NCBI GenBank assembly: GCA_045654505.1
Contig: JAZONM010000005.1
Span: forward strand, 37,491-101,490
Length of the DNA stretch: 64,000 nt
DNA from: Clostridia bacterium
GTDB lineage: Bacteria > Bacillota > Clostridia > Christensenellales > UBA1242
Reading direction: 5' to 3'
The notes under the pieces are model-generated. The model was not told where the DNA came from. It did no database searches and was given only the letters and a program-made list of their open reading frames with translations. This document shows positions 32,188-53,283 of the stretch, piece after piece; position 1 is the stretch's first letter; each line of letters begins with the position of its first letter. A program made the position numbers and the translations under genes.

Positions 32188-32291
32188 AATGTACAGAAAA
32201 AGTATTTTACTATAAAATAGTAAACATAGTGTATTTAATTTGACAATTTTCGCGGTATTATATATATTTATATATATAATCGGAGGAAACC

Positions 32292-35200
32292 ATGAGTAAG
32301 CGTAGAAAATTAATAATCAATATCATACTAATTTCCATTTTGATACTACTAGCCCTAGTATCTACTTTGTTGTACATCAATCTGTATCCAAGAGTATCGG
32401 TGCACCTAATCAGTGACAACGAACTTTTAGACACCATTCAAATCAAGAAAAACTCCAGCATTCCGGCATTAAAGTCGCCAGAAAAAGAGGGTTATACATT
32501 TGAAGGTTGGTATAATGACCAAGATTACACCTCACCTTTTGTGTATGGTGAAAGTCTTAGTGATGACATAGAGTTGTACGCAAAATTCACTGCCATTGAT
32601 TATACGCTTACTTTCAATTATGGTGAAATCAGTAATATTTATCCTTCGGCTATTTATCATTTCTACGACGCAGTTGCACTTCCTGATGGTACCGAGACAA
32701 TTCTTATTCAAGGAGAAGAGACCACACTTGCCACTTTAAAACAAGGTTATAAATTTGCTGGTTGGGCTCCTACTAAGAATTCGACTGTTGCTACTTATGG
32801 TAAAGGCACTACTTTCCTTATGCCTTCATCAAATGTTAATTTGTATGCGGTTTGGGAGCCTATCGCTTATTCTGTAAAATACTATATCCAAGATCTTAAT
32901 CAAGTAGATGCGGTACGAGACGTCGATGCCGATGGTTTTGTAGCATATAATGCAAATAGTCATGTAAAATATGGGGAAATCGAGTACAAATACAATACTA
33001 AAGTTGTGGCGCCAGATGCTCCTAAAAATGAGCAAGGGTATTATCAATTTGTAGGTTGGTATGAAGATCCACAATTTACAAAGCCTATCAATTTCAACCA
33101 AACATATATGGGTCTAAACCAACTTTCAAATATCAATCTTGTACCTATTTATGATACAGACAATGAAGACCAAATCTGCCTATATGGTAAATGGCAAGTT
33201 GTTAGATTTAATATTGCATTCTGCCTAAATGGATCATCTCGTGTGGGCACTAAATATGTTGTTAAAGACAGTAGCGTAATGCAAACAGACGAAAATGGTT
33301 CGTATACAAATTCAGACTTCTTCAAATATAAAGAAGACGTGTATTTCGGACTTCCACTTTCTTATCTAGATGGCGGAATCTATTCCAATGCTCTTTTAGA
33401 TGGACAAGTATATTATAGTTATGGAACACTAAGAGATACTGTTTCGCATAAATTTGTAGGCTGGTTTACAGCAAGAAATGCGAGCGAAGGTACTCAATAT
33501 AAAAATGACACTCAATTCAATCCTGAGGACTTCCCAGAGTACTATACAAATAGAGACGAAGGTTTCTCTTTCTTGGAGCCAGGTATCCGCACATACGTGC
33601 TTTATGCTGCTTGGGAAGAATTTTTACATATCGAATATAGTTATAATGGTTCTATCCTTGACCGTCAACAAGTAGAAAATGGTAAAACTGGCCAACTTAA
33701 TGACCCTGCAAAAATGGCAAATGTAAAGAAATCAGGTTATCACTTCATTGGTTGGAGCAAAACAGCTGACGCTCTAAATACTGGTGCTACTATTTATAAA
33801 TTGGGTCAAAACTACAAATTTACTACTGAGGCAAGTGAGAGTGAAGATGAAAACTGTCTATTCTTCTCGGTAGGAAATAGAAAAACAACCTTGTATCCAA
33901 TTTTCAAACCTAACAATTATGAAATCAAATATGATTTTTCTATCAATACACTTGGTAGTGATGGAAAACTTAATGTAATTAAAGACACTCAGCCAAACAA
34001 TGTAGTATTCAGCGACTACATGAAAGAAAAATTGGCGGAGACATACATTATTCGTTATAACACAACTGTAAATGGTAGACTTGAGTCGCATACAGTATTA
34101 AATAGTATCGATACAAATGGCAATTCTAATGCTACTTATAAAGATACAAGTGGTGAAACTTACTTATTGTTGAGTTGGGCAGTAGTAGACGAAGACAATA
34201 ATGTAGTAGCTACATATGCTGGAAACAATGAAATTTATGCAAACAGCACAAATAGCGTAATTTATAAATACAGCAAAGAGAAATCGACTGGAAATTATGA
34301 GTTTGTAATTAAAGCTATTTGGACTACACAAATGACAATTACTTTCGATAAAGGTTGGGACGATGTAGAGGGAGAAGTGCCAGCATCAATCACAGGCATG
34401 ACTGGTGCTACAATAAAACTTCCTACCACTCCAAGTTTGACAAGGCCTTATCATGTATTTAGAGGTTGGGTTGTTGATGCAGAGAGAATAGATGAAAATG
34501 GAAAGGAAAATTATAATCCTGCCAATGTGTATCTTTCAAACAATTCTTATTCATTCAGTGAAAACACAACACTTTATGCTCTTTGGGAGCCAATTGAATA
34601 CAAACTTGTAATCCGAAACACTACAGTAAACGGAAATGAAGGTGCGCAAATTGCCTCCATTTCTATTGGTGCAGGTGTTTATAAAAACATTGTAGCTCAA
34701 GTTACGCTTGGTGAAAATATTGTGATTGGTGATGGTGCTACCGCCACTGTAATCCCTCTATCTTCCCCTCAAGCAGGCTATTCATTGACAGGTTTTTCGA
34801 TTGTGGCTGGCGGTGATGTTGTGTTTGCAAATGGCGAAGTAATCACAATTCTTTCTGAAGCTAATAAAGAAAACATCTTTAATCCATATCCAGCAAGCAA
34901 TGCAAAAACTTTTGTTATCTATGCAAAATATGAAATAAAGAGTTATGACATTGAGATTGACAGAGACGGAGATGGTACTTACGAAACAAAAGAAGAAGAT
35001 GTTAGACATGGTTCGCTTCTTCGTGACAATATGCCAAATCCATCTCTTGCTGAGGGCTATGAAATAGCTTATTGGGAAGTAGATAATGGTGTAGAAATCG
35101 TAAAAATCGAAAATATGAATGCAAGCGATTTTAAGGTTACTTCTGATCTTAAAGTAAAACTTTACACTAAAATTCAAACCTTTACTGTTTTGATCCAACA

Positions 35201-38200
35201 AACTGATCCTGTAAGTGGAAATATAGTAAGTGAAATCAAGAAAGAAGGGGTGGAGTATAATACCACTCTTCAATTAGATCCTACTGACGATGATTATATT
35301 ACATATTTTGGATACATCTTTGATGGCTGGTATTTAGGTGAAACTAAAGTTGAGCTTGCTACACAGGTCATAACTTCAAACGCAACATACAAGACAAAAT
35401 ATGTTGCAGACAAAGTGCGCTTTGTATATCACGCAAATAAAGATGTTGACGACACAACAACAATGAACAGTAGTGCATTTGACTACGGTACAGAGTTTAC
35501 TCTTCCTACACAAGTTTTGTTGGGAAGTGGATTTACAAAATCGGGTTATGTTTTAAGCGGTTGGACTCTTGACGCTGACAATACTGAATTTGTAGGTGCT
35601 ACTAATACAATCGTAAAAGTTTCTAATGACAAATTTGACGAGAGTCTATTCGTGACAGAGTTTGGTCAAACAGGTTATGTTATTCACATTTATGCTCAAT
35701 ACTCTAGACAATTTACTGTATCATTTGAGTTCCCTGATACCGTAACTGCATCTGGAAATACAAGCATTGTGGAAAAATATATTGCTGGTAGTGAAATAAA
35801 TGTTGCTAGTTTTATAAAAAACAATAGCATATCCATTACTCCTGATGCAGGTTATGTATTCAATAATGACTGGTATGTAAAAGGATTTGAAGACGTTTTG
35901 TACAGCGAGTATGAAGTAAATGTTATTGTTGTTAATGACAATATTGTTCTTATGCCATTTGTAGAGACAATCAAATACACAGCAGTATTTAATTACAAAT
36001 ATCCAAGTCAATCTACATACACAACTCTTGAAGACTACACTCAAGAAAATATTGAGATTGACAATGAAGACACAAAAATCAATCTACCATCTGCTGAGAT
36101 GCTTAAGGATATATTGAAGAATGGTGGCACTACATATCGTGCACTTTCTTGGTATCTTCAAGGTGCAGGCGGAACATATGATTTGGGTCAATCTATCACT
36201 CTTACAAGTGATATGATACTTGCCGGAAACACAATAATCGAATTCACATTAAATTTAAGTACTGAGAAGACAGTTCGTTATAATCCAGATGATCCTGACC
36301 TATCATCTGTCGACATTAAAGTTGTTGAGAATGAAACTATATATGTAGGTTATAAAGGTGAAGTAAAAGCCGAAAATCTTATTACATTCACTCGTGAAGG
36401 ATACAATCTTGTATGCTGGATGGCTGGTGATACTGAGTATGCTATCGGTGACGAATTGGTAGTAGGAAAAGATATCGTAGTCGAAGAAGGTAGACCATTT
36501 GTATTCAAAGCTACTTGGGAGAAAAAACAAACAAATATTATTTACAATTCAAATTACCCAGTGGGTGAATTGACTAATATTACCGAGAGCACAACAGTAG
36601 GCTGGGGCACAAACTATTCGGTAGAAAGTAAAAACTGGGATTGCGAAACAGCAGAGTATTTGTATGTAATATCTGCATGGAACACTGAGAGCAATGGAAA
36701 TGGTACTACATACAATGTAGGCGAAACAATAAAAATCACCTTAGAAATGGAAGGCGATTTCAATCTTTACGCTGTGTGGACACGTGCATATAGAGTAATA
36801 TATAAAGATGGTGCAAATCAAGAAAACGGCACAGAAAATATTCTTGTAGGTGAAGAATATACATTTGTAAAAACAACAGATGTTTCATTTACAAAAGAAG
36901 GTCATTATATTGCAAAATGGGCTTACGCAGGCAATGAGTACGAACCATCTACAGACCTTAATCCAAGCAAAGCGATTGTTTTGACAAGGGAAGTACCTGG
37001 CAAAATAGTAGTATTTGAAGCGGTTTGGGCAGCAGACGAATTGACTATTACATTCGTATATACAAATGCTGACGGCACTGAGTACAGTCGTACTACTTAT
37101 GATACAAGTTATGGTGCTACATATTCACATGACTTTGATATGGACAGAGAAACTCTTACATATGATGGTCACAATTATAAATTTGTAGCTTTTGTAGACG
37201 ATAGAGGAAATCAATATACTAGAAATATTGCAAATAAAATTGTTGTTGAGCAAATTACTTACTCAATGACTCTTACTTCGCTTTATCAAAAAGAAGTAAC
37301 CCTTACTTATGTATACGCATCTGATTCAAAAGTTTTGACTTTTGCTGCAGGAACTGTAATCGGCAATGAAGAAAATCCATTCCTTGTGTTTACTGACCAA
37401 GAAATGTCTGACAATGGTGAAGGCAATGCAAAACATATAGGTTGGACTGACGACGCCAATAATTATACCTTTATCTCAAATGCTAGTGAGAGCGGTTATA
37501 ATTATGTGAGACAAAACTCATTTGCAACTACATTCACTCTAAATAATAGTGTTGTTTTGAATATTTTAAAACTTGACAAGTATGAATTATTGATTTATGA
37601 CGATATAAGTTACAATAATACTGAAAGTAAAGTTGAGTTTAGCAATAGTGATTCTGCCATAACTTTGGTTGAGGGTGACACTTATACATATAATTATAAC
37701 AATTCTGATTACAAAGGATTTGTAATTGGTGGAAGTGTATTTAGTTATGATCCAAACACTGAAAAAGATTTGGATGCGAGTGACACATTTACGCTTAATG
37801 GTACTCTTGCAAATACATATTCGAGCGATAAGAAAATATATTTGTATCCTCTACAATATATTGATGTTACTTTTGTAGGTTTGAATGGTGCAGAAAGCAC
37901 TAAGACAATTTTGGCAGGAACAAGTACTTCTCCTGATGATGTAGCAAGCGGTGACGAAAAATCATATTTTTCACACTGGGTAATTGACGCAACAGGGGAA
38001 ACAATTGACTTCGAAAATGATACTCCAATATTCTGGGAAGATACCAAAGTAATTGCTGTATACAAAAACTTCTTCTCTGTACAATATCTTGATAGCGATA
38101 TTGCAAATAGAGATGCTTTAAACAATACAAAACTTAAAGACACTGATAAAATTAAACTTGCTAAAGTCAATAATACAGTAGTCGTAAATGGCAGTACCGT

Positions 38201-41200: not shown

Positions 41201-44200
41201 ACTTGAAAATTATTATTACAATGCAAGTGGAAATCAAGTATCAGTGGCATCAAGTGCCGTGGGTGGATACAAGCAAACAGGCTGGTATTATATTGATAGT
41301 GATGACAATCACATTCCATTTAATACCGCAAGTGACACATATACACTTGATGGAGACCTTCATTTATATCCACAATATGAAAATATATACTTTGTAAAAA
41401 CAACTATTGCAAATACTTATGTAAGTGGCGGTTATACAAACAACGAGGAAGTAACCAGCAATCTATTCTCACTATATGTGCCTTCTACTTTAATTAAAGG
41501 TTATGTATTTGTAGGATACGAATGTAAAATTGGTGAATCTTATGTTTCATTTATGTACAATGGCACTTCTTGGTCGGTTAAATTTGCTGCGTTTGATTCG
41601 GCTCAAGCCACAACTGTACTTGATCCAGTTAGTGGTGGAAAATATGATTTTGATTTATTCAAACGTAAAGGCTGGACAAGTTATACTCAATTCACAATTG
41701 AAGGCAAATTTGAATATGAAAGTTATACAATAGACTTTGACATTGCTACAGGTTCTACTCTTGGTGAGGGAAAATTATTTGTAGATGGTGAAGAGAGTAC
41801 AAGTTATGATTTGCCTGTAGAGTATGGATATACTGTTCAGTATGACAAAACAAGTGTTGCTACATATGGTGTTGTATGTTTTGTAGTTACAGTTTATGAT
41901 AGGGACAGTGAATTGCTAAAAACTCTATACTACGTACCAAATGACGCTTGTGTGGTAAATAATATGGAGTATCAATTGACTGGCGGAAGCAAGACAACAT
42001 TTAATGAAGACACTCCACTTTCTATTACTGCTAATACTACATTTACTGGTACATTTGGAAATGCAACAGCTTCAGTTGTTTTCAAATTTGTAGCTGATGC
42101 AAATCTATATACAAACAATAATTTACCAATCATAACAACAACATTTGTAAATAGTGGAATTAGTGGTGAATCTATCTCTACAATTCTTAAATATAATCAT
42201 ACTATTGCAAATCCAGAATATACTGAGGCACGTCCAACTTATATGGATTCTCTATACAACAACAATATAGCTACTACAGCATATAGGGTAGACATACCTC
42301 GTACACAATCATTTACGTACACATTGTCTGTAGGTGCCAATTACGAATTGTATGACACTATTGCATCTCAAACCCTTAAAGTAAATGGAAATATGGAAAT
42401 TGTTGTAAAACTAAAACTTAAGACAAAAACCATATCTTTCCAAAATAATTTCTATAATGGTACAGAAAATACACCTTCGACACAAAAGGGTTATGTAGTA
42501 TTGCACTACAAAGAAGCTGTGGAAAATGCTGATGGATTTATCACAAGCTTTACTGACAAAACAATGGGTGTGGCTGGTACAAACAGCTATGAAGTGATGA
42601 TTTATCATACAGATGCGCCATATTTTGAGGTGGTAGAGACTACAGGTTATCAATTGCAAGGTATTTACGAAGAAGAATATGATAAAGATGGAGATAATAC
42701 AGAAGTAGCGCCATACAATGCAGCTTCTGCACACTATATCTTGAATACAGCTTATGATACCTTCAATGCTACATTTGTTGAGAAAGAAGTTACATTCACT
42801 TTTGCAATCAGCAACGGAACAAAAAATCTTGATGTTGTTACAAAAACATATAAAGTCACTGATGTAGATACATTTGAAAATGATGTACAAAACCTAACTA
42901 CTGCTACAGTAAATGGTGATACATACACTCTAAACGAATTACTTATGCTTAATGCTAATAAAGCTGACTTTAAAAATGTATGGGTAGACACAGAGTCTGC
43001 TACTGGTATTTGGGATACTACAAATGCATATCTAAATGCTGGCATGCTAAATCTAGATTCGAATGTTGTTATTTATGCTAATGTTGTGGTTGCGCATCTT
43101 GTTGAGGTAAAAGCAGGTGATAATGGTAGCATTTCTTATGATGCAGATGACGAAAATCATGGCAAAACATGGCTTCTATATTCCAATACAGCAAGAGGTG
43201 AAAAATACTCTAATCTTGTATTTAAGGTAAGAGTGGAGCATGGTATACCTACAATCACAGCTACTCCTGATGCGGGATATAATACAGATTTCAAATTTAG
43301 TGCTGTAGACAATAAATATAAAGAAGTGTACAGCACATTGATTGGTAGTGAAGCTTTGACAATAACTTTTGAGGAAATCACTCTTGACATCAATGTCGAA
43401 ATAGTAGAGACAGAAGATAATTCGTACATTACTTTAAATGGCTCTGCACTTTCATTAAACTCGTTCAACATGGGTTCCACAACTACATTTGACGAATTGT
43501 ATGACCAAATTATTTCGCTATTGACAAGTAAATATGGTAAAGCTACTGACTATAAAATAAGCGGCAATAATCACTATATTTTCTATTCAAATACTGGCAT
43601 CTCATATTATCTATCATTAGAGGTATCAAAATTATACGATTCTTCATTCGCTGTACTTAATTTTGATGATGCGATCTACACTAAATCAGGAAATAATGAC
43701 GAATTTACTGTATATATTAGATTTGGAAGAGTAGATAAGTACGAGTTTGCAATCTATGACCTTGAGACTGAATTGGTAAAACTTTATTTAAATGAAGGTG
43801 ACGTTGTAGATCTAGCAAATCTAGAGTATCCAGGTACTGAATACACCTTCAGCGAATATGCGTCCGAGCATAATTTTGGACTTACTGGTGCTTACTATTT
43901 GCACTTGAGTCAAAATGGAAATGCTTATTCTAGATTTAGTGAAGATTTAGATAATGTTCATGGATATGCTTATCTCCAACATATAAAAATCAATCCTCTT
44001 GGAGGTGGTGTTTATGAGCGTGTTGTCAATACTTCAATCCAAAACACTACATTCACAATGGATGATCAATCTATAACTCTATATGTAGTTGCGGCAAAAG
44101 AATTATCTCTTAAAATAACCGTATGTGGAGACTCTACTTCTGCAGATGAGGAATTGGAAAAATACGGAATAGACCCTAATGGTACTCAAATATCACCTGC

Positions 44201-47200
44201 TCCTAAATATTTTGAAGGAAAACATATTAGTGAATCCGAAATAATTGCAGCTGTACAAGCATATTTTGAGTCTGCAAATATTACTATCTTTGAGATATTA
44301 GGTATAGGTGATAAAGATGGTATTGAAGAAAACTGGGAAATCATTGTTACGGAATCAACTGCAAGCGGCATAATAAATGTTGTTGTGCGTATTTGCAAAA
44401 TAACAACAACTACTAGATTGATAAATGGTTATGATGCCACTATCAATATTCCAGTAGATATACAATATGACCAAAACTATGTAAATCCAGGCTACTTCAG
44501 TGCGGCTTCAAATGACCCATTCTATGAAAGCGGAATGCCTTATATAATGGATAATGGTATGTGGGTACAAAACCCAGCACTTACTAGTGAAGAATTTGCG
44601 CCATGGGCTCCTACAGGTTGTGTGTTTGTCGGATACCTTGTGGTAGATGAAGAATATATCCTTGGCATGACAGATGGAAGATATACAGAAGCAAACGGAA
44701 CAATTTATGACATTTACGAATACAATCTTGCATCTTTCCATAATGGAATTATAAATCCAGATGACGTATATTCATTTGTGGCAATGTACTATTCTTCATA
44801 CACTCTAAACTTTGGTCGAAATGTAACCAACTATGTTAATGGAGTGAAGAGTGCAAACGAGTACTTGTATAGTGATTATGGTTATGCCTATGAAATCACA
44901 TATATGAAATGGACTGCATCCGGAGGAAATTATACTCAAGAAGAGATAACAACAACTGTATACAGTATTCAAAGTCTAAATCAAATCTCTGCTTCACTTG
45001 ACGATATTACGTTTAAAGTAATATATGCTGATTATTATACAGTTAGCATACCATCGTATACTGGTGGCACTTCAGAAGAAAAGAGTATTGACGATATTGA
45101 CATCAATGGTGGCGAATTTAAATGTATCACATTTACATTAAGTCCAAATTCGACTACTGGTAGTGTCACTATCGGTATGCGTGCTGACTATATTACTTCA
45201 TACACACCGTATGACTCTTATCGAGAAAATTACAACTCGCAAGTATACTGGTATGATATCAATGGTCAAAAGGTGTCATACGAAAATGTGTATGGCGCTA
45301 CTGATGCAAATTTATTTGCTAGACCTAATGATATTTATTATTACTTCAAGACAGAAGGCGACATAGGTGCACGTATAATTCAATATTATGAATACTATAA
45401 TGACCCAGTATTCTTTAGTGAAGGATCACATGAGTTTGCTCCAGGAAAGAGTGTTTGCGCTATGACGCTTGCTTTGGAGCCGATTAAGGACATATTGTTT
45501 ATAAATATTGAGGCGGCTGATGGCACATCAATCCCTGCTACTACAAATACAGCAGTCGGTGGCAAATATTCTAGCGATTCGACATATAGTAATAAAAGAT
45601 TCAATTTTGACATTGTTACTGCTACGACAATAAACGCAACCTTCAAAGTAAACTCAAATGAAATCTTCAATACAAGAAGTACGGGTGCATATTTGCTTTC
45701 TCATGCTGTGTATCCAACAACAAAACTTGGTATTTTGTACCAACAACAAGTCTATAGCATAACTTCAAATATAATTGACGAACTTGTAATAAATATGCAT
45801 CACGATATAATCGAAAATGATAAATACAAAGATGACTTCGAACAATATATTTTAAATAGAGTAGACTATACATTAAAGACTAGCAATACTAGCCCTACAA
45901 ATATGACATCAATTGGTATTGTTTGGGAAAACTTTGTAAGTTACTATGCTGCGAAAACTACTGTGTTTAAGACTTTGTCTGAGAGTAGTAGTACCCCAGT
46001 AATACAATTTAAGTTCTTGACAGGATACGCAAGGTACACCTTTAGGATTACGGAAAGTACTGCTGATTTCAATTTTGAGGAAGGTGATATTACTTCTTCT
46101 AATACCGATACAATAAATAGTGAGCCACTTATAAATATCGCACTTGATGAAAGTGACTCCTTCTATATTGTCTCGGGCACATTCTATCATTTGGGTAGCA
46201 TACAAATAGTGGCTACTACTTCGGGCACCATTACTATAAGTTATTTCAGTCCTGGTACTACGACTGCTTCTAGAGTGGTGAATCTTGCTCTAAATAGTGC
46301 AATAACAATCTCTACAGCTCAAGAATATACTATTTCACTAGATACAAGATATCAAAATGAAGGTGATGAGTACAATCAATTAGCACATGAATTGACAGTT
46401 AGTATATCTTCAGTGTCAGTTCCTATCTGGGCAAGAGCACTAAATTCTGCTGGTACTGCATTTGATACTGGCTTGCCTACTATATTAGGCAATATCTACA
46501 TTCGTAAAGACCTATACAATGATACATCGTATGATATTTATGCAAGTAATACTGGTGCTACTGGTGATATGAGGGCCATCAATTTCCAAGATGACTCGAC
46601 ATATGCTAGTGCATTAAGCACTCTAAATACTTCTACAAAACACGGTTATAATCTAGTAGAAAATGTTGACTATCTAAATATGACTACACTTCTTGATTTC
46701 TTTAATGCTAAGGATAAGATTGTTGCAAAACTTAGCACAAGTGTTACATTTGAAGAGAAAAATGGTGAAACATTGTGGATGTTTAATGGTACAAGCATGC
46801 CTACTGCTACTACTTCTACATGGTATACTTTGCGTGGTTTGATGCTTGCTGATATGACGGTTGTTGATACCTATACATTCAATTCAGGATATACAACAAG
46901 AATCAGAACTACAAACACCCTAAATAGCACTCAAGTAAGTGTTAAAAATACTATTCATATTGCTCTAGAGCCAGCGACAGTATATACATACGACAACAAT
47001 ATTACTAATACATCTACAAGTTATTACACTGTGCAAGAAAACTCTATGTCAGGTTCTTACTACATGCCATATGTAAAATATGACAGCACTAGTAAGACAT
47101 ATAAGACTGCGACAAGAAGTACTACTACATTTGGACAATACATTCATAGATATCCAAGTGGTATGTATACAAGCAGTGTACTAAATTTCATTACAAACAA

Positions 47201-50200
47201 AATTGCAATAACTGACACTTCAGTATCTACATATTGGGGAGACAATACTTCAAATAAGCTTACACTTGAAGGTCCTTTCGCGACTTACAATTTGGGTACT
47301 TCGTCTAATATTAAAGGACTTCATATTTATAGTAGTGGAGCAAAGAAAATTTCATTAGTATGGAATAGAATTTCTTCGACAGTTGTATTTGTTGGTGAAG
47401 CTTCTCAATTCCTTACTACAAAAACAACATCTTCACCTATATATTACTCTAATTGGGGAAGAATTAAATCCTTTATGGAAAGTGGTTCTCTTATCTATGA
47501 GACTATGGACTCCAGTAAGACGGTAACTACTCCTGATTACCATACAGTGACAGATAATAGTGCAGATAGCAATTCCATTTATCAATTACGATTTGCATTT
47601 GAAGGTCAAGATGTAAGGTATTGGACAAATACTACTAATATATACTCTGACACGACCACAACAAGTATTTATCTTACTGGAATGGGAAATGATATTACCT
47701 TTACTACAGTAAGCGACGATATAAGTTTTGTATATGCTGTGTATACACCAGCCAACAACACATACAATAATATGGCTATGTGGTCATTTCAAGCTGGCGA
47801 TCATACGGTATTGGCTGGTTATAATTTGACTGATGGTAATACTAGTCTAAAAGCATATTTCGACAATTTGGATGATGTTGAATACAAAATGTATGTACCT
47901 ACATGGCATTTCATGAAAAATAGTAGTACAGCACTTACTATTGATGAAGACGATACTCCAGGTGTAGCTACTTATGCATATCGTATTACTACTATTAGCA
48001 TCAAAGATCATGGTTATGACGAAGGATATTTTGATGATTGCGTGTATAACCCTGGCGATATAAAATACGTATACTTTGATGGTAGTGCATCTATCGGAAA
48101 TCCAGGAGCATATTCAAGCAGTAGCCAAGATTATTATTTGTCTCATGGCGGTGTAAGTGGATATCAATATAATATGGAAATGCTATGTAAAGACTATGCT
48201 ATGATATCAAAGCTTACATGGACACATAAAGGTCCTCAAAGTCTGATCGGCTATGGAGAATACGATCCAGGTACAAATTTACATTTTATTGGAGTTGTTG
48301 GTGGATCTTCAAATGCTGGGTCTATTATCGTAAATAGTACCACAAACCGTATAATTCACGCGGCACCAAATGGAACAATTGGTCTAACTTCTAATTTATT
48401 AGGTTATACTTTGATTGATGCTATGGCATTTGCTTACAATCAATCGAGCATATCCCAATTAGAGTTTAGCAATGTGACCGGTATCGGAACTGGCGCGTTC
48501 TACACAGAAAACACCAATTTCTTATCGGAAAACATTATATTTGGTAAAACACTGGCTCGAATGGGTACCAATATATTCCATGACAATCGTGTTAAAAATG
48601 GAAATTCATTAAAAATCACTTTCTATGGTACAATACCATATACTACCTACAACAACACATATGGTTATGCTAAAGGTATTCCAATGTTATTTAATGCAAA
48701 CAGTACTTCAAAATTTGAGTTGTGGTACTATGCACGAAATGATAAGTCAAATGCAGGCGGGTCTTACGGATTTAGAGGCTCATATGATAAATATCTATTT
48801 AATAATGATAATACATCTGATTATTACGATAATTATCGCTTTATAGAAGCTCCTGCATCATACTTTAGTATTTCAAGCAATGCCATAAATGGTATTACTT
48901 CTACAGGTGCAACCAATTTAATAAGCACAACAAGTGGTCACTATCAATACTTAGTATTGCCAAGTAAAGATAGTAGTGGAAATACAATCACTTGGGCAAA
49001 TTATCTTGGTCTTGTAGAGACAGGTCAAGGAAATGATTATATAGACATTATAAAGATATACTACCAAGGCACACACAATATCGGAGCATTTACACAGCTT
49101 AATGGTACAACTCGTGCTGCAGATATGGGTCATCAAGTCCAATATCTCGAGACCGCTATCAATACATTTACGACGGCAAATTGCATTATGGGAGTTGAAG
49201 GTAGTCATTCTGCTATATACATTGGTTCTTCATTGACTAATTATTTATTGGGAATAAATCTACCACATATTAAGACAGTAGCTAATACTACTTCTTCTTA
49301 CTCAGGAAAATATCAAGATAAACTGACAAGTATAAATCTCCCAAATGCAACATCTATCGGAGAGTATGCCTTTATAGATTTAGATGCGCTTGTTACCGTA
49401 AACATTCCTAAAGTAACTACAATCGGCACTTATGCCTTCGAAGATTGTGGCAAACTTACTACTGTTACTGCTGAGAAACTGACTACAGTCGGCAGTAGTG
49501 CCTTCGAAGATTGTAGCAAACTTACTACTGTTGCTACAGAAAATCTGACTACAATTGGCAATTTTGCGTTCTCTGACTGTAGTGCACTTACATCTTTAGG
49601 TAATGTTACAAGTACGTCATCTACTAAAGGTGCTTCGTCTCTTGGTACATATTTTGCTGAAAATACAAAAATATCGCATGTCAATATTACTACCACAGCT
49701 ACACTTGCAGGTACAGCAGCATCTTCTGGCGTGCCTAATTCATCCGGTGCATTCCATGGTATGACATCTCTTAAGACCTTTAACACAATCGGAACTAAGA
49801 ATGGTACTTGTTATCTAGATACATTAAATAGTGGTAAGGCATTGATATATAAGACAAAGAGTCTTACTGAAAATGGGCCAGGATACTACTATCTTATTGA
49901 ATACGGACAAGGTAATACTGGCAGTGACACAATCACAATCCCAGGTGGCGTAGTATACGACGATGCATTTGAAGACAGCAAACTTACTACTTTGACACTT
50001 GGTGCTACTGATGGTGAAAACTTATTTATGGGTAATCTACCATTTGCGGGTTCTGATATCACAAGCATAATATTGAATGCTAGTCTTAGAAATGTTGGCG
50101 TTACTAATTTATATAGTCTTTATTCACAAGTATCGTCATCAGCATTCTATTCAGGTATTACAAGAAGCGAAACAGGCGGGTCTTATATATTTGACAATGC

Positions 50201-51770
50201 ACCAAAACTTACTTCTGTTGCTTATTCTAGTACATATACTCCATCAAACAGTGATACATACGGAAGATTCTGTGGATTGTATGATGGTTGTATTTATGAT
50301 TATATAAATTGCATTACCGGTTCGTTAGAAAACGGATATTATACATTTGGATTTGCTCCAAATGCAAAATCTGGCACAATAAATGTATATTCGGCTACTA
50401 AAAATATAGGTGAATATGCCCTAAAAGACAACGGAGTGTGCACGTCATTTGTTATAAACAATCCTACTACTTCTTATGTACATCCAGAAGCTTTAAATAC
50501 TGGTATGTGTGAAAATAGAGGAGAGTCAGCAAGCTCCACCACTGATAGCAGCGGAGCGGGATTGAAAAGTATCACTACGCCGAATAATACCAAAGATGAT
50601 AATTATTTATATTATGCCTACGATGATGTATTGTATTATCATCAAATTGAAGGTATATATTATTATACTTATAGTTTCTCAGGTGCATGTAGTAAATGTA
50701 ATAACTCAACTGCTGATTATCTTTACAATGGTGAATATACTTTATTGTCTTCAGCAAAATATACTACAGGTACATTAGTATCAAATACAATATTTGCTAG
50801 AGGCCTTTATAAATGTAGTGCATGTAATACTCCATCTACAGAATATCATGCAATAAAAGCTTATACTAATGGAGCAGGTTCGCCTAAGACAACACATAAA
50901 TATACTGTAGTCACCTGTCCAAGGCAAAAGACTGGCACTGTAGATTTGTGTTCGATGGAAGACGAAAATAGTATTGTAGTAGGTATGGAGGATTATGCAT
51001 TCTATGCGTCAAATCTGAGTGTTGTACATATTAGTCAAAATGTACAAACTAGAATTAAATATAGTACATTCAATGATGCTGATGGTATGGCGTTATATAA
51101 TCATTCATTATATGACATAATTGAATATGTTCACACTTGGAATCCTGTGTGGGAATTGGCGGGATACTTTGACGAGTCTGTGTTTGGTAATTATTTTCGC
51201 AACGAACTTTTCAATGTTACAGAATATTTATGTCGTACAGACCTAAAACTATATCTTCTTCCAGTGCTATACGCTAAATACAATCCTTATATCAATAGCA
51301 GTGTAAACTTATTCGGTACAAATGCATTGTCTAAAGAAAGAGTATTTGGTTTCTACGACTACAATCCAAATGAGTTTGCAGTAGAGTCTAGAAACGAAAC
51401 TGCAAATGTATCTATAATAAATCAAACATATTCATTTACTGCACGTAATTATGGTTTTGTAAATAATTATGGAGCAGGATCAAGTTATAAATACTATTAT
51501 TGTGAAGGATGCGATTACTATCATCTTATCGGACATTCTACTACAAGTTATAATATGGGAATATATAATGCGGTATACAAAATACTTAACAATGTATACA
51601 ATGCGACATTGTATTATTGTAGAAACTGTACATTTACAGGTAATATAAGAGTAGGTGCTACAACTGGTATTGATGTTACTACGGGCAGTACTACATACGG
51701 ATATACCACTGTAAAAGCAAGACGTATAATGGCAACAAGTTATAATTTGTATTCGGCAACACTTCCTTGA
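32292..51770 (+). CDS. Giant (6,492 aa) N-terminally anchored surface protein: Listeria-Bacteroides (Flg_new-type) repeats, orphan core, BspA-type LRRs, CxxC tail
   Basis: Uninterrupted 19,479-nt ORF with RBS cggagg. N-terminal KRRK plus TM (LIINIILISILILLALVSTLLYI). At least 25 G(Y/H)xFxGW-type repeat signatures. LRR_5-like IG..AF..C..L repeats near the C-terminus. No LPXTG or C-terminal TM. Confidence 0.85.
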   Translation: MSKRRKLIINIILISILILLALVSTLLYINLYPRVSVHLISDNELLDTIQIKKNSSIPALKSPEKEGYTFEGWYNDQDYTSPFVYGESLSDDIELYAKFTAIDYTLTFNYGEISNIYPSAIYHFYDAVALPDGTETILIQGEETTLATLKQGYKFAGWAPTKNSTVATYGKGTTFLMPSSNVNLYAVWEPIAYSVKYYIQDLNQVDAVRDVDADGFVAYNANSHVKYGEIEYKYNTKVVAPDAPKNEQGYYQFVGWYEDPQFTKPINFNQTYMGLNQLSNINLVPIYDTDNEDQICLYGKWQVVRFNIAFCLNGSSRVGTKYVVKDSSVMQTDENGSYTNSDFFKYKEDVYFGLPLSYLDGGIYSNALLDGQVYYSYGTLRDTVSHKFVGWFTARNASEGTQYKNDTQFNPEDFPEYYTNRDEGFSFLEPGIRTYVLYAAWEEFLHIEYSYNGSILDRQQVENGKTGQLNDPAKMANVKKSGYHFIGWSKTADALNTGATIYKLGQNYKFTTEASESEDENCLFFSVGNRKTTLYPIFKPNNYEIKYDFSINTLGSDGKLNVIKDTQPNNVVFSDYMKEKLAETYIIRYNTTVNGRLESHTVLNSIDTNGNSNATYKDTSGETYLLLSWAVVDEDNNVVATYAGNNEIYANSTNSVIYKYSKEKSTGNYEFVIKAIWTTQMTITFDKGWDDVEGEVPASITGMTGATIKLPTTPSLTRPYHVFRGWVVDAERIDENGKENYNPANVYLSNNSYSFSENTTLYALWEPIEYKLVIRNTTVNGNEGAQIASISIGAGVYKNIVAQVTLGENIVIGDGATATVIPLSSPQAGYSLTGFSIVAGGDVVFANGEVITILSEANKENIFNPYPASNAKTFVIYAKYEIKSYDIEIDRDGDGTYETKEEDVRHGSLLRDNMPNPSLAEGYEIAYWEVDNGVEIVKIENMNASDFKVTSDLKVKLYTKIQTFTVLIQQTDPVSGNIVSEIKKEGVEYNTTLQLDPTDDDYITYFGYIFDGWYLGETKVELATQVITSNATYKTKYVADKVRFVYHANKDVDDTTTMNSSAFDYGTEFTLPTQVLLGSGFTKSGYVLSGWTLDADNTEFVGATNTIVKVSNDKFDESLFVTEFGQTGYVIHIYAQYSRQFTVSFEFPDTVTASGNTSIVEKYIAGSEINVASFIKNNSISITPDAGYVFNNDWYVKGFEDVLYSEYEVNVIVVNDNIVLMPFVETIKYTAVFNYKYPSQSTYTTLEDYTQENIEIDNEDTKINLPSAEMLKDILKNGGTTYRALSWYLQGAGGTYDLGQSITLTSDMILAGNTIIEFTLNLSTEKTVRYNPDDPDLSSVDIKVVENETIYVGYKGEVKAENLITFTREGYNLVCWMAGDTEYAIGDELVVGKDIVVEEGRPFVFKATWEKKQTNIIYNSNYPVGELTNITESTTVGWGTNYSVESKNWDCETAEYLYVISAWNTESNGNGTTYNVGETIKITLEMEGDFNLYAVWTRAYRVIYKDGANQENGTENILVGEEYTFVKTTDVSFTKEGHYIAKWAYAGNEYEPSTDLNPSKAIVLTREVPGKIVVFEAVWAADELTITFVYTNADGTEYSRTTYDTSYGATYSHDFDMDRETLTYDGHNYKFVAFVDDRGNQYTRNIANKIVVEQITYSMTLTSLYQKEVTLTYVYASDSKVLTFAAGTVIGNEENPFLVFTDQEMSDNGEGNAKHIGWTDDANNYTFISNASESGYNYVRQNSFATTFTLNNSVVLNILKLDKYELLIYDDISYNNTESKVEFSNSDSAITLVEGDTYTYNYNNSDYKGFVIGGSVFSYDPNTEKDLDASDTFTLNGTLANTYSSDKKIYLYPLQYIDVTFVGLNGAESTKTILAGTSTSPDDVASGDEKSYFSHWVIDATGETIDFENDTPIFWEDTKVIAVYKNFFSVQYLDSDIANRDALNNTKLKDTDKIKLAKVNNTVVVNGSTVQVDYVKANMELIGWYICYTPNGLSGDYDSKLFALEEEFYPYAYAVGKDLYDDNGDIWTNFYVFPVWEAALIDITFSYPENTDNTEFSLNASGTYKVEYNSDIAIQNVSDTVMTITFTAVEVQGDNSRKYTETTITATALQVSANNILTQWQFTDGESNTSEIDNTFKFTEAGNISFTYTTSAVNITVGVKYAGEIQTEDTYGYFYKGTNKTKHIVNYTEKGTSGAYNLKLTAVEQTSTVAEFKGWYVYDEASGDYIKIENDSIFTVNDKVLNITGLKDDVVIYANFSTGYVTVNQTNTYLHADGKTVDTSKITSLRASFVNVDEVDGVSYTSGEIAIDSTKALSVNLNDTVTITYDLTSSVYRVHGIRVSYTVLGETTTTNYLVDNGNGSVSFAVNQVVPYTIEMILVESEIKVHFKGYDGATDLFTKTYQYGATLGEIGLPSANGKDNDHTEDGKLYTFAGWNDLDVNANVTQDMDIMSSWIRVYDVVVNNGDSDTVHKIIYTSSDTETTSLSGEYSNYISLSATSKTNYRLAKYIFTYEIDENIVVDLSENVFRLNDVLTQAEVEQTVRMRIDPVYEKLYAIKVYDKDGFVRDSIDQISIHETINYSVIDEVGYDFVNWNVSYNGKTQTITSLENFKLESLSILDDDSVHLIEFEPIYQLKTFTLTFVVNNSSRGSINASNEGYEIHYGEKITFSGKVATFTDSLDRPQEITATTIGAYQFLGYSTTNSESIEALTEYTITDNIVIYAIFVNATVGITAELHTYVAGTERNDMDGGWIVQIVGLDEIPATSWNLTASTGTTIQFNISSEVGFNLTSVEVKVGNGDYETLIPDGAIYSILITDVTDIQIRFDAIEYDVTIGMGSVTGFTQTPWAYYMDSEDNPISITTRETNVYQDIAYSLEKTLVIYAEEEYYDIDEIVYTLGTSTTENDIVDYTINADGQYEIKFVVTNDVHIKVYVKFREIQAIFHDYQGNLTGKTKTFTYNQTISGVDVSDATYRLENYYYNASGNQVSVASSAVGGYKQTGWYYIDSDDNHIPFNTASDTYTLDGDLHLYPQYENIYFVKTTIANTYVSGGYTNNEEVTSNLFSLYVPSTLIKGYVFVGYECKIGESYVSFMYNGTSWSVKFAAFDSAQATTVLDPVSGGKYDFDLFKRKGWTSYTQFTIEGKFEYESYTIDFDIATGSTLGEGKLFVDGEESTSYDLPVEYGYTVQYDKTSVATYGVVCFVVTVYDRDSELLKTLYYVPNDACVVNNMEYQLTGGSKTTFNEDTPLSITANTTFTGTFGNATASVVFKFVADANLYTNNNLPIITTTFVNSGISGESISTILKYNHTIANPEYTEARPTYMDSLYNNNIATTAYRVDIPRTQSFTYTLSVGANYELYDTIASQTLKVNGNMEIVVKLKLKTKTISFQNNFYNGTENTPSTQKGYVVLHYKEAVENADGFITSFTDKTMGVAGTNSYEVMIYHTDAPYFEVVETTGYQLQGIYEEEYDKDGDNTEVAPYNAASAHYILNTAYDTFNATFVEKEVTFTFAISNGTKNLDVVTKTYKVTDVDTFENDVQNLTTATVNGDTYTLNELLMLNANKADFKNVWVDTESATGIWDTTNAYLNAGMLNLDSNVVIYANVVVAHLVEVKAGDNGSISYDADDENHGKTWLLYSNTARGEKYSNLVFKVRVEHGIPTITATPDAGYNTDFKFSAVDNKYKEVYSTLIGSEALTITFEEITLDINVEIVETEDNSYITLNGSALSLNSFNMGSTTTFDELYDQIISLLTSKYGKATDYKISGNNHYIFYSNTGISYYLSLEVSKLYDSSFAVLNFDDAIYTKSGNNDEFTVYIRFGRVDKYEFAIYDLETELVKLYLNEGDVVDLANLEYPGTEYTFSEYASEHNFGLTGAYYLHLSQNGNAYSRFSEDLDNVHGYAYLQHIKINPLGGGVYERVVNTSIQNTTFTMDDQSITLYVVAAKELSLKITVCGDSTSADEELEKYGIDPNGTQISPAPKYFEGKHISESEIIAAVQAYFESANITIFEILGIGDKDGIEENWEIIVTESTASGIINVVVRICKITTTTRLINGYDATINIPVDIQYDQNYVNPGYFSAASNDPFYESGMPYIMDNGMWVQNPALTSEEFAPWAPTGCVFVGYLVVDEEYILGMTDGRYTEANGTIYDIYEYNLASFHNGIINPDDVYSFVAMYYSSYTLNFGRNVTNYVNGVKSANEYLYSDYGYAYEITYMKWTASGGNYTQEEITTTVYSIQSLNQISASLDDITFKVIYADYYTVSIPSYTGGTSEEKSIDDIDINGGEFKCITFTLSPNSTTGSVTIGMRADYITSYTPYDSYRENYNSQVYWYDINGQKVSYENVYGATDANLFARPNDIYYYFKTEGDIGARIIQYYEYYNDPVFFSEGSHEFAPGKSVCAMTLALEPIKDILFINIEAADGTSIPATTNTAVGGKYSSDSTYSNKRFNFDIVTATTINATFKVNSNEIFNTRSTGAYLLSHAVYPTTKLGILYQQQVYSITSNIIDELVINMHHDIIENDKYKDDFEQYILNRVDYTLKTSNTSPTNMTSIGIVWENFVSYYAAKTTVFKTLSESSSTPVIQFKFLTGYARYTFRITESTADFNFEEGDITSSNTDTINSEPLINIALDESDSFYIVSGTFYHLGSIQIVATTSGTITISYFSPGTTTASRVVNLALNSAITISTAQEYTISLDTRYQNEGDEYNQLAHELTVSISSVSVPIWARALNSAGTAFDTGLPTILGNIYIRKDLYNDTSYDIYASNTGATGDMRAINFQDDSTYASALSTLNTSTKHGYNLVENVDYLNMTTLLDFFNAKDKIVAKLSTSVTFEEKNGETLWMFNGTSMPTATTSTWYTLRGLMLADMTVVDTYTFNSGYTTRIRTTNTLNSTQVSVKNTIHIALEPATVYTYDNNITNTSTSYYTVQENSMSGSYYMPYVKYDSTSKTYKTATRSTTTFGQYIHRYPSGMYTSSVLNFITNKIAITDTSVSTYWGDNTSNKLTLEGPFATYNLGTSSNIKGLHIYSSGAKKISLVWNRISSTVVFVGEASQFLTTKTTSSPIYYSNWGRIKSFMESGSLIYETMDSSKTVTTPDYHTVTDNSADSNSIYQLRFAFEGQDVRYWTNTTNIYSDTTTTSIYLTGMGNDITFTTVSDDISFVYAVYTPANNTYNNMAMWSFQAGDHTVLAGYNLTDGNTSLKAYFDNLDDVEYKMYVPTWHFMKNSSTALTIDEDDTPGVATYAYRITTISIKDHGYDEGYFDDCVYNPGDIKYVYFDGSASIGNPGAYSSSSQDYYLSHGGVSGYQYNMEMLCKDYAMISKLTWTHKGPQSLIGYGEYDPGTNLHFIGVVGGSSNAGSIIVNSTTNRIIHAAPNGTIGLTSNLLGYTLIDAMAFAYNQSSISQLEFSNVTGIGTGAFYTENTNFLSENIIFGKTLARMGTNIFHDNRVKNGNSLKITFYGTIPYTTYNNTYGYAKGIPMLFNANSTSKFELWYYARNDKSNAGGSYGFRGSYDKYLFNNDNTSDYYDNYRFIEAPASYFSISSNAINGITSTGATNLISTTSGHYQYLVLPSKDSSGNTITWANYLGLVETGQGNDYIDIIKIYYQGTHNIGAFTQLNGTTRAADMGHQVQYLETAINTFTTANCIMGVEGSHSAIYIGSSLTNYLLGINLPHIKTVANTTSSYSGKYQDKLTSINLPNATSIGEYAFIDLDALVTVNIPKVTTIGTYAFEDCGKLTTVTAEKLTTVGSSAFEDCSKLTTVATENLTTIGNFAFSDCSALTSLGNVTSTSSTKGASSLGTYFAENTKISHVNITTTATLAGTAASSGVPNSSGAFHGMTSLKTFNTIGTKNGTCYLDTLNSGKALIYKTKSLTENGPGYYYLIEYGQGNTGSDTITIPGGVVYDDAFEDSKLTTLTLGATDGENLFMGNLPFAGSDITSIILNASLRNVGVTNLYSLYSQVSSSAFYSGITRSETGGSYIFDNAPKLTSVAYSSTYTPSNSDTYGRFCGLYDGCIYDYINCITGSLENGYYTFGFAPNAKSGTINVYSATKNIGEYALKDNGVCTSFVINNPTTSYVHPEALNTGMCENRGESASSTTDSSGAGLKSITTPNNTKDDNYLYYAYDDVLYYHQIEGIYYYTYSFSGACSKCNNSTADYLYNGEYTLLSSAKYTTGTLVSNTIFARGLYKCSACNTPSTEYHAIKAYTNGAGSPKTTHKYTVVTCPRQKTGTVDLCSMEDENSIVVGMEDYAFYASNLSVVHISQNVQTRIKYSTFNDADGMALYNHSLYDIIEYVHTWNPVWELAGYFDESVFGNYFRNELFNVTEYLCRTDLKLYLLPVLYAKYNPYINSSVNLFGTNALSKERVFGFYDYNPNEFAVESRNETANVSIINQTYSFTARNYGFVNNYGAGSSYKYYYCEGCDYYHLIGHSTTSYNMGIYNAVYKILNNVYNATLYYCRNCTFTGNIRVGATTGIDVTTGSTTYGYTTVKARRIMATSYNLYSATLP
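32430..44700 (+). repeat. Region of Flg_new-type ~70-100-aa beta repeats within the giant ORF (dense to ~41.6 kb, sporadic after)
   Basis: Examples: EGYTFEGWYNDQDYTSPF..IELYAKF, QGYKFAGWAP..NLYAVW, YQFVGWYEDPQFTKPINF, SGYHFIGWSK, HVFRGWVVD..TLYALW, SGYVLSGWTLD, EGYNLVCWMAG, AEFKGWYVYD, YTFAGWNDL, GYVFVGYECK. Boundaries approximate. Confidence 0.7.
48400..51070 (+). repeat. BspA-type leucine-rich repeat (LRR_5-like) region of the giant ORF
   Basis: IDAMAFAYNQSSISQLEFSNVTGIGTGAFY.., IGEYAFIDLDALVTVNIP, TIGTYAFEDCGKLTTV, VGSSAFEDCSKLTTV, IGNFAFSDCSALTSL, DDAFEDSKLTTLTL, IGEYALKDNGVCTSF, MEDYAFYASNLSVVHI. Boundaries approximate. Confidence 0.7.
49344..49607 (+). repeat. Four tandem 66-nt (22-aa) LRR units; units 2 and 3 near-identical at DNA level
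   Basis: Unit 2 is 49410-49475 (KVTTIGTYAFEDCGKLTTVTAE). Unit 3 is 49476-49541 (KLTTVGSSAFEDCSKLTTVATE). gccttcgaagattgt(g/a)gcaaacttactactgtt is shared 32/33. Confidence 0.85.
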
Positions 51771-51851
51771 TTTGTAAATGGAATAGATATTTGCAAGAAG
51801 AAATATACAAATCAAAAGCAGTAAGTCTATGCAATAAAAGTAAAAACTTGT

Positions 51852-51887
51852 AAAAAAAAAGGAAAGGCGAGAGCCTTTTCTTTTTTT
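51852..51887 (+). terminator. Rho-independent terminator after the giant ORF
   Basis: aaaaaaaaaggaaaggc gaga gccttttc ttttttt. Confidence 0.7.
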
Positions 51888-51927
51888 GTCGTTTTGAGAT
51901 TGATGCTGTGTCCTTTTTCTAAATTTA

Positions 51928-52142
51928 CTTGAAATGACAGTATTTCTGCTAGATTTCTCCGCTATGGTCGAAATGACAATTATATATAGATTTCGACACT
52001 ACAGTCAAAATAGCAGGTATACATAGATTTATTGACGTAACTCGAAATAATAGTATTTTGTCTTTCTGAGATGGACCCACATGATGGACAATCTAAGAAT
52101 CTCGACAATAGTAAGTCCAGATTTCTCTACTCTGGTCGAAAT
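51928..52142 (+). repeat. Degenerate ~37-bp tandem repeat array (5-6 units) rich in GTCGAAA / TTTCGAC (Spo0A-box-like) cores
   Basis: Units start at 51928, 51967, 52004, 52041, 52101 and 52135, each (g/c)t(c/t)gaaat.aca..tagatttc... Cores: GTCGAAA 51967-51973 and 52136-52142, TTTCGACA 51991-51998, GTCAAAA 52004-52010, CTCGAAA 52041-52047, CTCGACA 52101-52107. Confidence 0.7.
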
Positions 52143-52161
52143 CACGGGTGTAAAAAAAGTG

Positions 52162-52190
52162 TTGCAATATGGAAATATATTTGGTATAAT
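52162..52190 (+). promoter_or_regulatory. Sigma-A-type promoter of the rpsF-ssb-rpsR operon
   Basis: TTGCAA (52162-52167), 17 nt, TATAAT (52185-52190). The ~70-nt leader has two small hairpins (gtgataa..ttatcac; cttcgagaaatcgaag) before RBS aaaaggagg. Confidence 0.65.
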
Positions 52191-52261
52191 ATGCGTGATA
52201 ATTAAGGTTATCACCTTGCTTCGAGAAATCGAAGCCATTAGACCAAAAGGAGGTAAAAAGA

Positions 52262-52543
52262 ATGAATAAGTACGAAATGCTTACAATTTTCAGCGCAACA
52301 CTTACTGATGAAGACAAAGAAAAAATTGTAGAAAAGTATTCAAAACTTATGGAGACCGATGGTGGAAAAGTCCTTAATGTAAATAAATGGGGTATTAAGA
52401 AATTTGCATATCCTATCAATTACAAAAAAGAAGGATTTTATGTGCTATTTGATTTTGAGTCAAAACCTGAAGTTCCTGCTAAGATTAGCGCATTGATGAA
52501 CATTGATGAAAATGTTTTGAGAAGCCTATGTTTGAAGAAATAG
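52262..52543 (+). CDS. rpsF: 30S ribosomal protein S6
   Basis: MNKYEMLTIFSATLTDEDKEKIVEKY..NKWGIKKFAYPINYKKEGFYVLFDFE is the typical S6 sequence. Operon context with ssb and rpsR. Confidence 0.95.
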   Translation: MNKYEMLTIFSATLTDEDKEKIVEKYSKLMETDGGKVLNVNKWGIKKFAYPINYKKEGFYVLFDFESKPEVPAKISALMNIDENVLRSLCLKK

Positions 52544-52573
52544 TTTAAAGTTTTCATTTATAAGGAGAAAAAA

Positions 52574-52966: not shown

Positions 52967-53004
52967 TTTTAATTTAATAAAAAATATTTTAAGGAGTTTT
53001 TATA

Positions 53005-53283
53005 ATGGAGCAAATGACTATTGAAAGCGTTGCTGCAGTTGAGGAAAAAGTTGCACCAAAACGCTTTAAGAAAACTTCTAGAAAGAAAGTATGCAGTTTT
53101 TGCGTTGATAAAGTAAGTAGTATTGATTACAAAGATGTAAACAAACTAAAAAGATATATCACTGAAAAAGGTAAAATCCTTCCTAGAAGACAAACTGGCA
53201 CTTGTGCCGCTCACCAAAGAGAGCTTACAGTTGCTATCAAACGTGCTCGTTTTATGGCACTTATACCATATGTTGGTGATTAG
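53005..53283 (+). CDS. rpsR: 30S ribosomal protein S18 (with a ~20-aa N-terminal extension)
   Basis: [63 protein letters not shown]. Confidence 0.9.

Follow-up and report, generated by a model that had tools for sequence, protein, structure and literature searches.

The window analyzed here, a 64,000-nucleotide (nt) stretch of contig JAZONM010000005.1 (assembly GCA_045654505.1) from a Clostridia bacterium, contains a single gene of 19.5 kb that lies on the forward strand between a ger operon and an rpsF-ssb-rpsR operon and codes for a protein of 6,492 amino acids (aa). On the basis of its sequence features and of comparisons with orthologues from other strains and syntenic counterparts from sister species, we favor, with somewhat more confidence than doubt, the reading that it encodes a Sec-exported, probably N-terminally tethered giant fibrillar adhesin with a diversifying tip. 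The features of the locus are given below by window position and strand, with residue numbers of the giant protein in parentheses; P0001, P0151, and P0152 are orthologous proteins, and L001 is a sister-species locus.

32240..32268, forward strand: sigma-70/sigma-A-like promoter, TTGACA-17 nt-TATATT, agreeing with the consensus at 11 of 12 positions (a consensus match only)
32282..32286, forward strand: Shine-Dalgarno sequence GGAGG, 5 nt 5' of the ATG, from direct sequence reading
32292..51770, forward strand: giant open reading frame (ORF), 6,492 aa plus stop codon, with a product identical to P0152
32292..32387, forward strand: MSKRRK plus hydrophobic segment (aa 1-32), a predicted Sec signal anchor or long signal peptide, from hydropathy
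32397..41741, forward strand: array of divergent InlB-B-repeat/Flg_new-like modules (aa ~36-3150), from Pfam, self-profile, and hhalign searches
41742..48281, forward strand: central region (aa ~3151-5330) without a recognizable domain or internal repeat in library and PDB searches
48282..50261, forward strand: BspA-type LRR_5 region (aa ~5331-5990), from Pfam and PDB matches; aa 5689-5776 comprise four canonical 22-aa units
49416..49571, forward strand: 66-bp tandem repeat in 2.4 copies, the unit of which equals one 22-aa leucine-rich repeat (LRR) unit; copy number differs between strains
50170..52270, forward strand: strain-variable cassette made up of the last ~530 codons and the 0.5-kb downstream spacer, from nucleotide identity to the P0151 contig
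50262..51767, forward strand: C-terminal region (aa 5991-6492) of degenerate LRR_5-like units (at aa 6039 and 6232) broken by Cys modules
50688..50825, forward strand: CxxC-x38-CxxC module 1 (aa 6133-6178), kept in P0001 and P0151; its first CxxC is missing in L001
51501..51629, forward strand: CxxC-x35-CxxC module 2 (aa 6404-6446), kept in P0001, P0151, and L001
51854..51887, forward strand: intrinsic-terminator-like 15-pair stem-loop plus T-run

The giant ORF is a real, intact gene. It contains no ambiguous base, its G+C content is that of the flanks, and a stop-free run of 6,492 codons is expected by chance at only ~10^-229 given the base composition of the window. The gene is also intact in at least three further assemblies, because full-length versions are found in P0152 (6,492 aa, identical, on an NCBI-derived 234-kb contig), P0001 (6,471 aa, 94.9% identical), and P0151 (6,457 aa, 91.0% identical, on a 316-kb contig). 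P0001 was retrieved by an exhaustive HMMER search with aa 5501-6492, which it matches end to end at 86%, and P0151 and P0152 share its 90% cluster. Since giant repetitive genes are often misassembled and the source is probably a metagenome-derived genome, one might suspect an assembly artefact or pseudogene produced by a chimera or by collapsed or expanded repeats. We regard this as negligibly probable: the ORF is also intact, at 6,457-6,492 aa, on three other independent contigs and has a ratio of nonsynonymous to synonymous substitution rates (dN/dS) below 1, which indicates a reading frame under purifying selection, and near-identical DNA repeats are confined to the 66-bp array (156 bp), so that collapse or expansion is no concern in an ORF almost free of repeats at the DNA level. 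The preliminary description of this DNA had reported a single uninterrupted 19.5-kb frame with a good ribosome-binding site, a promoter-like TTGACA upstream, and a terminator downstream, all of which are recovered above. A TA-rich short direct repeat (TTATATATAT twice, window 32258-32277) overlaps the promoter-like -10 hexamer and extends toward the ribosome-binding site of the giant gene, and a scan of 31.5-53.5 kb against Rfam gave zero matches.

Hydropathy analysis revealed that aa ~7-32 form the sole Kyte-Doolittle window above 1.6 across the entire protein, and the sequence of this N-terminal segment is the same in P0001 and P0151. Neither a C-terminal hydrophobic window nor a second transmembrane (TM) segment was found, no LPxT[GAS], NPxTG, or LAxTG motif occurs anywhere in the giant protein, and none of its Pfam tiles matches an S-layer-homology (SLH), choline-binding, or other anchor family. 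These results agree with the preliminary description, which saw a KRRK stretch followed by a single N-terminal TM segment as the only visible tether of a protein devoid of LPXTG, C-terminal TM, S-layer-homology, and choline-binding motifs. Lacking both an LPXTG-type motif and a C-terminal hydrophobic tail, the protein is ruled out as a sortase substrate; likewise, it has no lipobox, because its first Cys occurs only at aa 296. It is conceivable, though rather doubtful, that the N terminus is a cleavable long signal peptide of the Gram-positive type, in which case the protein would be released to serve in a matrix, in biofilm formation, or in aggregation, either secreted or loosely associated with the wall. 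The hydrophobic stretch does contain weak -3/-1 candidate cleavage sites (LVS|T and VST|L), there is no known wall anchor, and nearly half of the predicted fibrillar-adhesin-like proteins have no recognizable anchor (PMC8286594). However, the run of ~25 residues (aa 7-32) exceeds a typical h-region and has no AXA-type site, and the combination of a conserved N terminus with a variable C terminus, described below, fits a fixed proximal and an exposed distal end, although neither point is decisive.

Beyond this predicted signal anchor, the first 1,400 aa match PF09479 Flg_new with 140.9 bits (gathering score 27) and PF18998 Flg_new_2 with 45.3 bits, and TIGR02543 (List_Bact_rpt) scores 79.1 bits against a cutoff of 20.95. 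Finer Pfam tiles resolve ~8 individual repeats up to aa ~1100 and one weak repeat near aa 2400. A self-profile built from the F-x-G-W repeats of the protein itself recovered 16 modules at an independent E value (iE) <=0.01, compared with 0.02 per shuffled sequence; loose thresholds raise the number to 18-22, with every module located within aa 40-3100, and an hhalign scan places the end of the repeat signal at aa ~3150. Among PDB sequences, the repeats come closest to the InlB B-repeat 2y5p, a weak match (E 0.023); a profile seeded with a single repeat recovered only 2 matches, and phmmer comparison of tiles with the whole protein yielded only three weak repeat pairs. Further degenerate motifs, such as GYNLVCW and TYRALSW, can be seen by eye, and the count of at least 25 Flg_new-type repeats in the preliminary description is plausible on that footing, but it is without statistical support, and the profile and Pfam counts fall short of it. 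The InlB B-repeat has a beta-grasp-like fold (PMC8900821), and proteins with Flg_new domains are enriched in gut-associated microbes and are regarded as adhesin-like (PMC9723798).

The central ~2,200 aa that follow gave zero matches in Pfam, NCBIfam, PHROGs, and PDB sequences, and a profile search of PDB was also empty, in keeping with the long stretch lacking any recognized signature that had been noticed earlier. No internal repeats were detected in this region with phmmer tiles, and an AlphaFold2 (AF2) single-sequence model of aa 3560-4260 had a mean confidence (pLDDT) of 28.5. Colinearity with the syntenic giant protein of L002, one of the sister-species loci described below, is weak.

The C-terminal part contains the LRR_5 block. 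PF13306 reaches 114.8 bits against a gathering score of 27.7 around aa 5560-5990; the match peaks over aa 5674-5769 and is extended by a weak one at aa 5344-5433, and the LRR_5 cell surface proteins 4fs7 (4e-16) and 4gt6 (1.5e-13) were retrieved from PDB. The HMMER tile check that had been proposed for PF09479 and PF13306 thus matched both families above their gathering scores, and both the BspA-type LRR block and the terminal region with two CxxC...CxxC modules hold up, the four CxxC motifs falling at aa 6133/6136, 6175/6178, 6404/6407, and 6443/6446. A PDB search with a profile of the C-terminal region found no match, and an AF2 single-sequence model of aa 5990-6492 had a pLDDT of 30.7. Orthology to BspA or HupY-LrrG was considered and rejected: NF047961 scores only 23 bits against a cutoff of 1250, and there is no type IX secretion system (T9SS) C-terminal domain, Big domain, or LPXTG element. 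An exhaustive HMMER search with aa 5501-6492 showed that 87,230 cluster representatives match the LRR part, and the top LRR_5 representatives analyzed (see below) are large and mostly start with a hydrophobic segment, which tempers the earlier impression that such proteins are rare.

The comparison of strain orthologues reveals a strong polarity in the conservation of the protein. Identity to P0001 and P0151 is about 99% across aa 1-1500 (for the 5' half of the gene, protein identity only), drops to 88-96% across aa 4250-5500 and to 78-86% at aa 5501-5750, and for P0151 falls to 47% at aa 6001-6250 and 37% at aa 6251-6492. P0001 lacks exactly one 22-aa LRR unit at aa 5715, the site of the 66-bp tandem repeat. 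Because the N-terminal third is ~99% identical and the distal half and the tip are variable, an N-proximal/C-distal topology is supported indirectly. P0151 also shows a second divergent patch at aa ~3290-3400 (window ~42160-42490), with 80.8% identity in the aa 3251-3500 bin amid values of 96-99%; this patch suggests mosaic recombination within the stalk too. Word-index homologue searches with aa 6001-6492, with aa 2501-3700, and with an alignment of the window and L001 C termini were empty; these are false negatives and not evidence of orphan status, because the same collection holds P0152 and the two other orthologues. Scans of genome and metagenome contigs with the giant's own sequence likewise found no relatives.

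DNA of the orthologues was reached via an exact SSB match and comprises, for both the P0001 contig (L032) and the P0151 contig (L033), the last ~9.3 kb of the giant gene and the downstream genes. RecD2, GerC, and GerA gave no exact match, probably owing to differences in start codon or strain. The ten flanking genes are ~98.5% identical in DNA; when pooled, they have a dS of ~0.05, with a dN of 0.003 (L032) and 0.004 (L033) and a dN/dS of 0.054 and 0.075, respectively. For the distal half of the giant gene (aa ~3400-6492), the corresponding values are a dS of 0.088 and 0.207, a dN of 0.039 and 0.090, and a dN/dS of 0.44 and 0.43. Along the gene, dS climbs to 0.24 in the LRR block of L032 and ranges from 0.9 to saturated over aa 5992-6492 of L033. 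Nucleotide identity to L033 falls from ~96% to 43-64% over ~50170-52270 (50-64% in the part inside the gene) and recovers to 99.7% at rpsF, so that the cassette has a sharp 3' boundary at the start of rpsF and a 5' edge at about nt 50170. The divergent P0151 allele is nevertheless colinear and keeps all four CxxC motifs, as well as YNHSLY, LLP..Y..YNPY, and GFYD. Taken together, the alignments indicate that the C-terminal cassette is an allele imported by recombination rather than a product of in situ drift.

A C terminus swapped as a cassette is the pattern of polymorphic toxin loci, and the exchange of the last ~530 aa and the spacer in a gene that, like its flanks, is otherwise 96-99% identical invites the idea of a contact-dependent effector in which a conserved stalk delivers a variable C-terminal domain, as in CdiA, WapA, and Rhs proteins. 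The content of the cassette makes this very improbable. Its divergent allele is colinear and has the same motifs, which points to one domain that has diverged and not to a different toxin; LRR_5-like units run throughout the region, and no toxin family or pretoxin motif was found there in Pfam or NCBIfam. Moreover, the spacer that separates the stop codon from rpsF is free of called ORFs in all three strains, and hence there is no adjacent immunity gene.

Counterparts of the giant gene are also found in sister species. In three loci identified through RecD2, namely, L001, L002, and L005 (RecD2 81, 79, and 70% identical, respectively), an ORF of >2,890 aa lies directly upstream of ssb-recD2; these ORFs run past the 10-kb flank, and their lengths are lower bounds. 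Where alignable, the sister giants are ~22-24% identical to the window protein, as against 80-93% for SecA and 85-95% for SSB. LRR_5 is detected near their C termini, strongly in L005 and below the gathering score in L002 and L001 (in L001 only in the C-terminal tile). The C terminus of the L001 counterpart is colinear with that of the window protein, with an LRR_5 match of 3.1e-08 between its Cys motifs, and it keeps the second module (YCEGC...YCRNC versus QCTGC...YCRNC) but not the first CxxC. The flanks upstream of ssb in L003 and L006 have no giant ORF, and those of L004 and L007 are too short to judge. The site is thus conserved, and the giant gene that occupies it evolves very fast. The giant protein of L002 (L002:6602-8734) ends in a different array with recurrent 'W..TDG..YY'-like motifs and no CxxC modules; because of this difference, the tip appears to differ between species in kind and not only in sequence.

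In the fibrillar adhesin that we favor, the positively charged N terminus and the single 25-residue hydrophobic segment would direct Sec export, with the segment most likely retained as a signal anchor. The ~3,100 residues of predicted beta-grasp-type Flg_new/InlB-B-repeat modules and the ~2,200 residues that follow may act as a rod that spans the wall and holds the C terminus beyond it. The C-terminal ~1,150 residues, in which an LRR_5 solenoid passes into the LRR-like CxxC region, would form the tip and, by analogy with other LRR_5 proteins, bind a ligand; host, mucus, food particle, or other microbial surfaces are candidate targets. The four-Cys modules could be zinc knuckles or disulfide staples that stabilize the tip. 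The three-strain comparison shows that the tip diversifies through relaxed or diversifying selection, changes in the number of LRR units, and replacement of the C-terminal cassette by recombination, and the pressure on it may come from ligands, phages, or host immunity.

Several points weigh against this reading. If the N-terminal peptide is cleaved, the giant protein has no visible tether, and for the third of the protein without an assignable fold (aa ~3150-5330), the stalk role is a guess. The partners of LRR_5 domains are diverse, and finding such a domain does not by itself prove adhesion. The dN/dS of ~0.43 is raised yet on average below 1, and most of the rise would be accounted for by relaxed constraint and not by positive selection; the N-terminal conservation, for its part, is a matter of protein identity only. 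A bolder form of the proposal, to which we give a low probability, is that the gene is the founding member of a lineage-specific family of N-anchored 'recognition fibers' in gut Christensenellales-like Clostridia, occupying a fixed site upstream of rpsF-ssb-recD2. The middle would then comprise one or more new folds, and the tip would be a new LRR solenoid with four-Cys (zinc-ribbon-like) staples, exchanged between strains as one cassette, which would alter the specificity of binding or escape toward a phage, antibody, or partner cell.

Among known systems, fibrillar adhesins consist of a stalk and a distal adhesive domain and are fast evolving (PMC8286594, PMC9210967). With this class, delineated by Monzon, Lafita, and Bateman and including 'periscope' stalk proteins (SasG, Rib, Cna, SiiE, and RTX adhesins such as LapA and MpIBP), the giant protein shares a long, beta-rich stalk array and a putative binding domain far from the predicted anchor, as well as rapid evolution and repeat number variation (PMC8286594, PMC9210967). 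The 16 Flg_new-like modules supply the tandem stalk by which such adhesins are recognized. The LRR_5 domain, near the C terminus, and the N-terminal hydrophobic segment lie at opposite ends of the protein, and the gradient of variability fits this arrangement, with the binding role remaining putative. RTX adhesins have the same polarity, with an N-terminal tether and a C-terminal ligand-binding region. In contrast, the usual order in Firmicutes is an N-terminal adhesive domain and a C-terminal LPXTG (PMC8286594), which the giant protein reverses, with a membrane segment only. Also unlike typical fibrillar adhesins, its stalk repeats are barely detectable and show no recent tandem duplication, and a third of the protein is nonrepetitive and without an assigned domain.

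BspA-type LRR_5 proteins (Tannerella forsythia BspA and Treponema LrrA; 4fs7, 4gt6, and 6mlx) share the LRR_5 solenoid with units of 22-23 residues. They have been discussed as adhesion and coaggregation factors. The giant protein is no orthologue of BspA, its LRR_5 part takes up ~10% of its length, and CxxC modules come after it; BspA itself, exported by the T9SS of a diderm, bears a C-terminal sorting domain (PMC8869499). Listeria internalin B likewise combines an LRR binding domain with a Flg_new/B-repeat; however, it has one B-repeat, an N-terminal internalin-type LRR, and a C-terminal GW region, whereas the giant protein has at least 16 repeats, LRR_5 in the opposite order, and no GW. Also comparable are the giant LRR_5 proteins of metagenomes (P0002-P0150, 1-8 kaa), which are very large and N-terminally hydrophobic, some of them with a few Flg_new-like repeats. 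Of the 154 top LRR_5 representatives analyzed (median length, 3,368 aa), 112 have an N-terminal hydrophobic segment and 1 has an LPXTG-like motif, which indicates, at the level of sequence prediction, that an N-terminal-hydrophobic polarity is common among them. P0002-P0150 are, however, dominated by tens of LRR_5 stretches and have nothing detectable in common with aa 1-5500 or 6000-6492 except for an occasional Flg_new. Omnitrophota-type giants (West-Roberts et al., bioRxiv 10.1101/2023.11.21.568195) share with the present case a giant gene in an uncultured bacterium, a mostly extracellular protein, and large unannotatable segments, but they are longer than 30,000 aa and contain numerous TM helices as well as SecA_DEAD-like domains, as opposed to one TM-like segment and no SecA domain here.

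Uncultured gut Firmicutes contribute abundant giant surface proteins to metagenomes, and these are almost entirely uncharacterized; this locus offers an intact and clean case, represented by three strain alleles and by counterparts in three sister species. It displays constraint at what would be the membrane-proximal stalk and freedom at the LRR/CxxC tip; because the tip is exchanged by recombination, the ~1,150 C-terminal residues are the part to examine for ligands, and the locus might serve in strain typing or be a colonization determinant. The domain types, the class of giant fibrillar adhesin-like proteins, and the hypervariability of tips are already known. Specific to this case are the extreme size, which is unusually large but not unprecedented for a bacterial adhesin class, the ~2,200-aa unassigned, nonrepetitive middle, CxxC modules that are conserved within an LRR-like tip, and a well-resolved cassette replacement at a fixed site. 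Only if the middle or the Cys-stapled tip prove to be new folds or functions would the case amount to a new category of biology.

Upstream of the giant gene lie a cytidine-deaminase-like gene, a gene for a transglutaminase-like lipoprotein, and gerA, gerB, and gerC, confirming the previously noted position directly after a ger operon in a block with such a lipoprotein. The giant gene starts 105 bp 3' of gerC; both are on the same strand, and no terminator-like site occurs in the interval. This adjacency is the one argument for a spore surface component (coat, exosporium, or appendage) coregulated with the ger operon, an alternative that the preliminary description had kept beside that of the vegetative cell. 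We consider it highly unlikely: the gene has its own near-consensus, sigma-A-type promoter-like site, and its product has a Sec-type N terminus, which coat and exosporium proteins deposited by the mother cell usually lack. Collagen-like and BclA-type features are absent as well (BclA_C, 15.5 bits versus a cutoff of 38), and in related genomes it is rpsF-ssb-recD2 that is conserved as the syntenic partner. Downstream, rpsF (52262-52543), ssb, and rpsR form an operon spanning 52262-53275, followed by recD2, comF, glpK, glpA-like genes, and secA.

The closest genome matches of RecD2 (63-81%) are metagenome-assembled genomes (MAGs) labeled uncultured Clostridia, Christensenella sp., and Ca. Onthoplasma, the last filed under Christensenellales, from human (Hadza and Nepal) and animal samples. 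The host is an uncultured gut-type Clostridia bacterium related to MAGs with these Christensenella, Clostridia, and Ca. Onthoplasma labels.

Four consecutive ORFs at window positions 21989-25049 (204, 200, 224, and 304 aa) each have a single hydrophobic segment at the N terminus, to which the fourth adds a Q/P/N-rich N-terminal tail; they had been described as TasA-like fiber genes, but no TasA/Peptidase_M73 or other Pfam or NCBIfam family was found in them. The transglutaminase-like lipoprotein (window 25496-28171, 891 aa) has a lipobox-like N terminus (..FLFTAC) and a Transglut_core domain, and in NCBIfam it comes closest to the Mycoplasma-type MAG6410 transglutaminase-related lipoprotein family, at 70 bits far below the cutoff of 450. 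A GlpA-like ORF (57766-59496) begins at a TTG and overlaps glpK (56482-57933) on the opposite strand; because orthologous called genes code for 477-481 aa, its true start lies ~100 codons further downstream.

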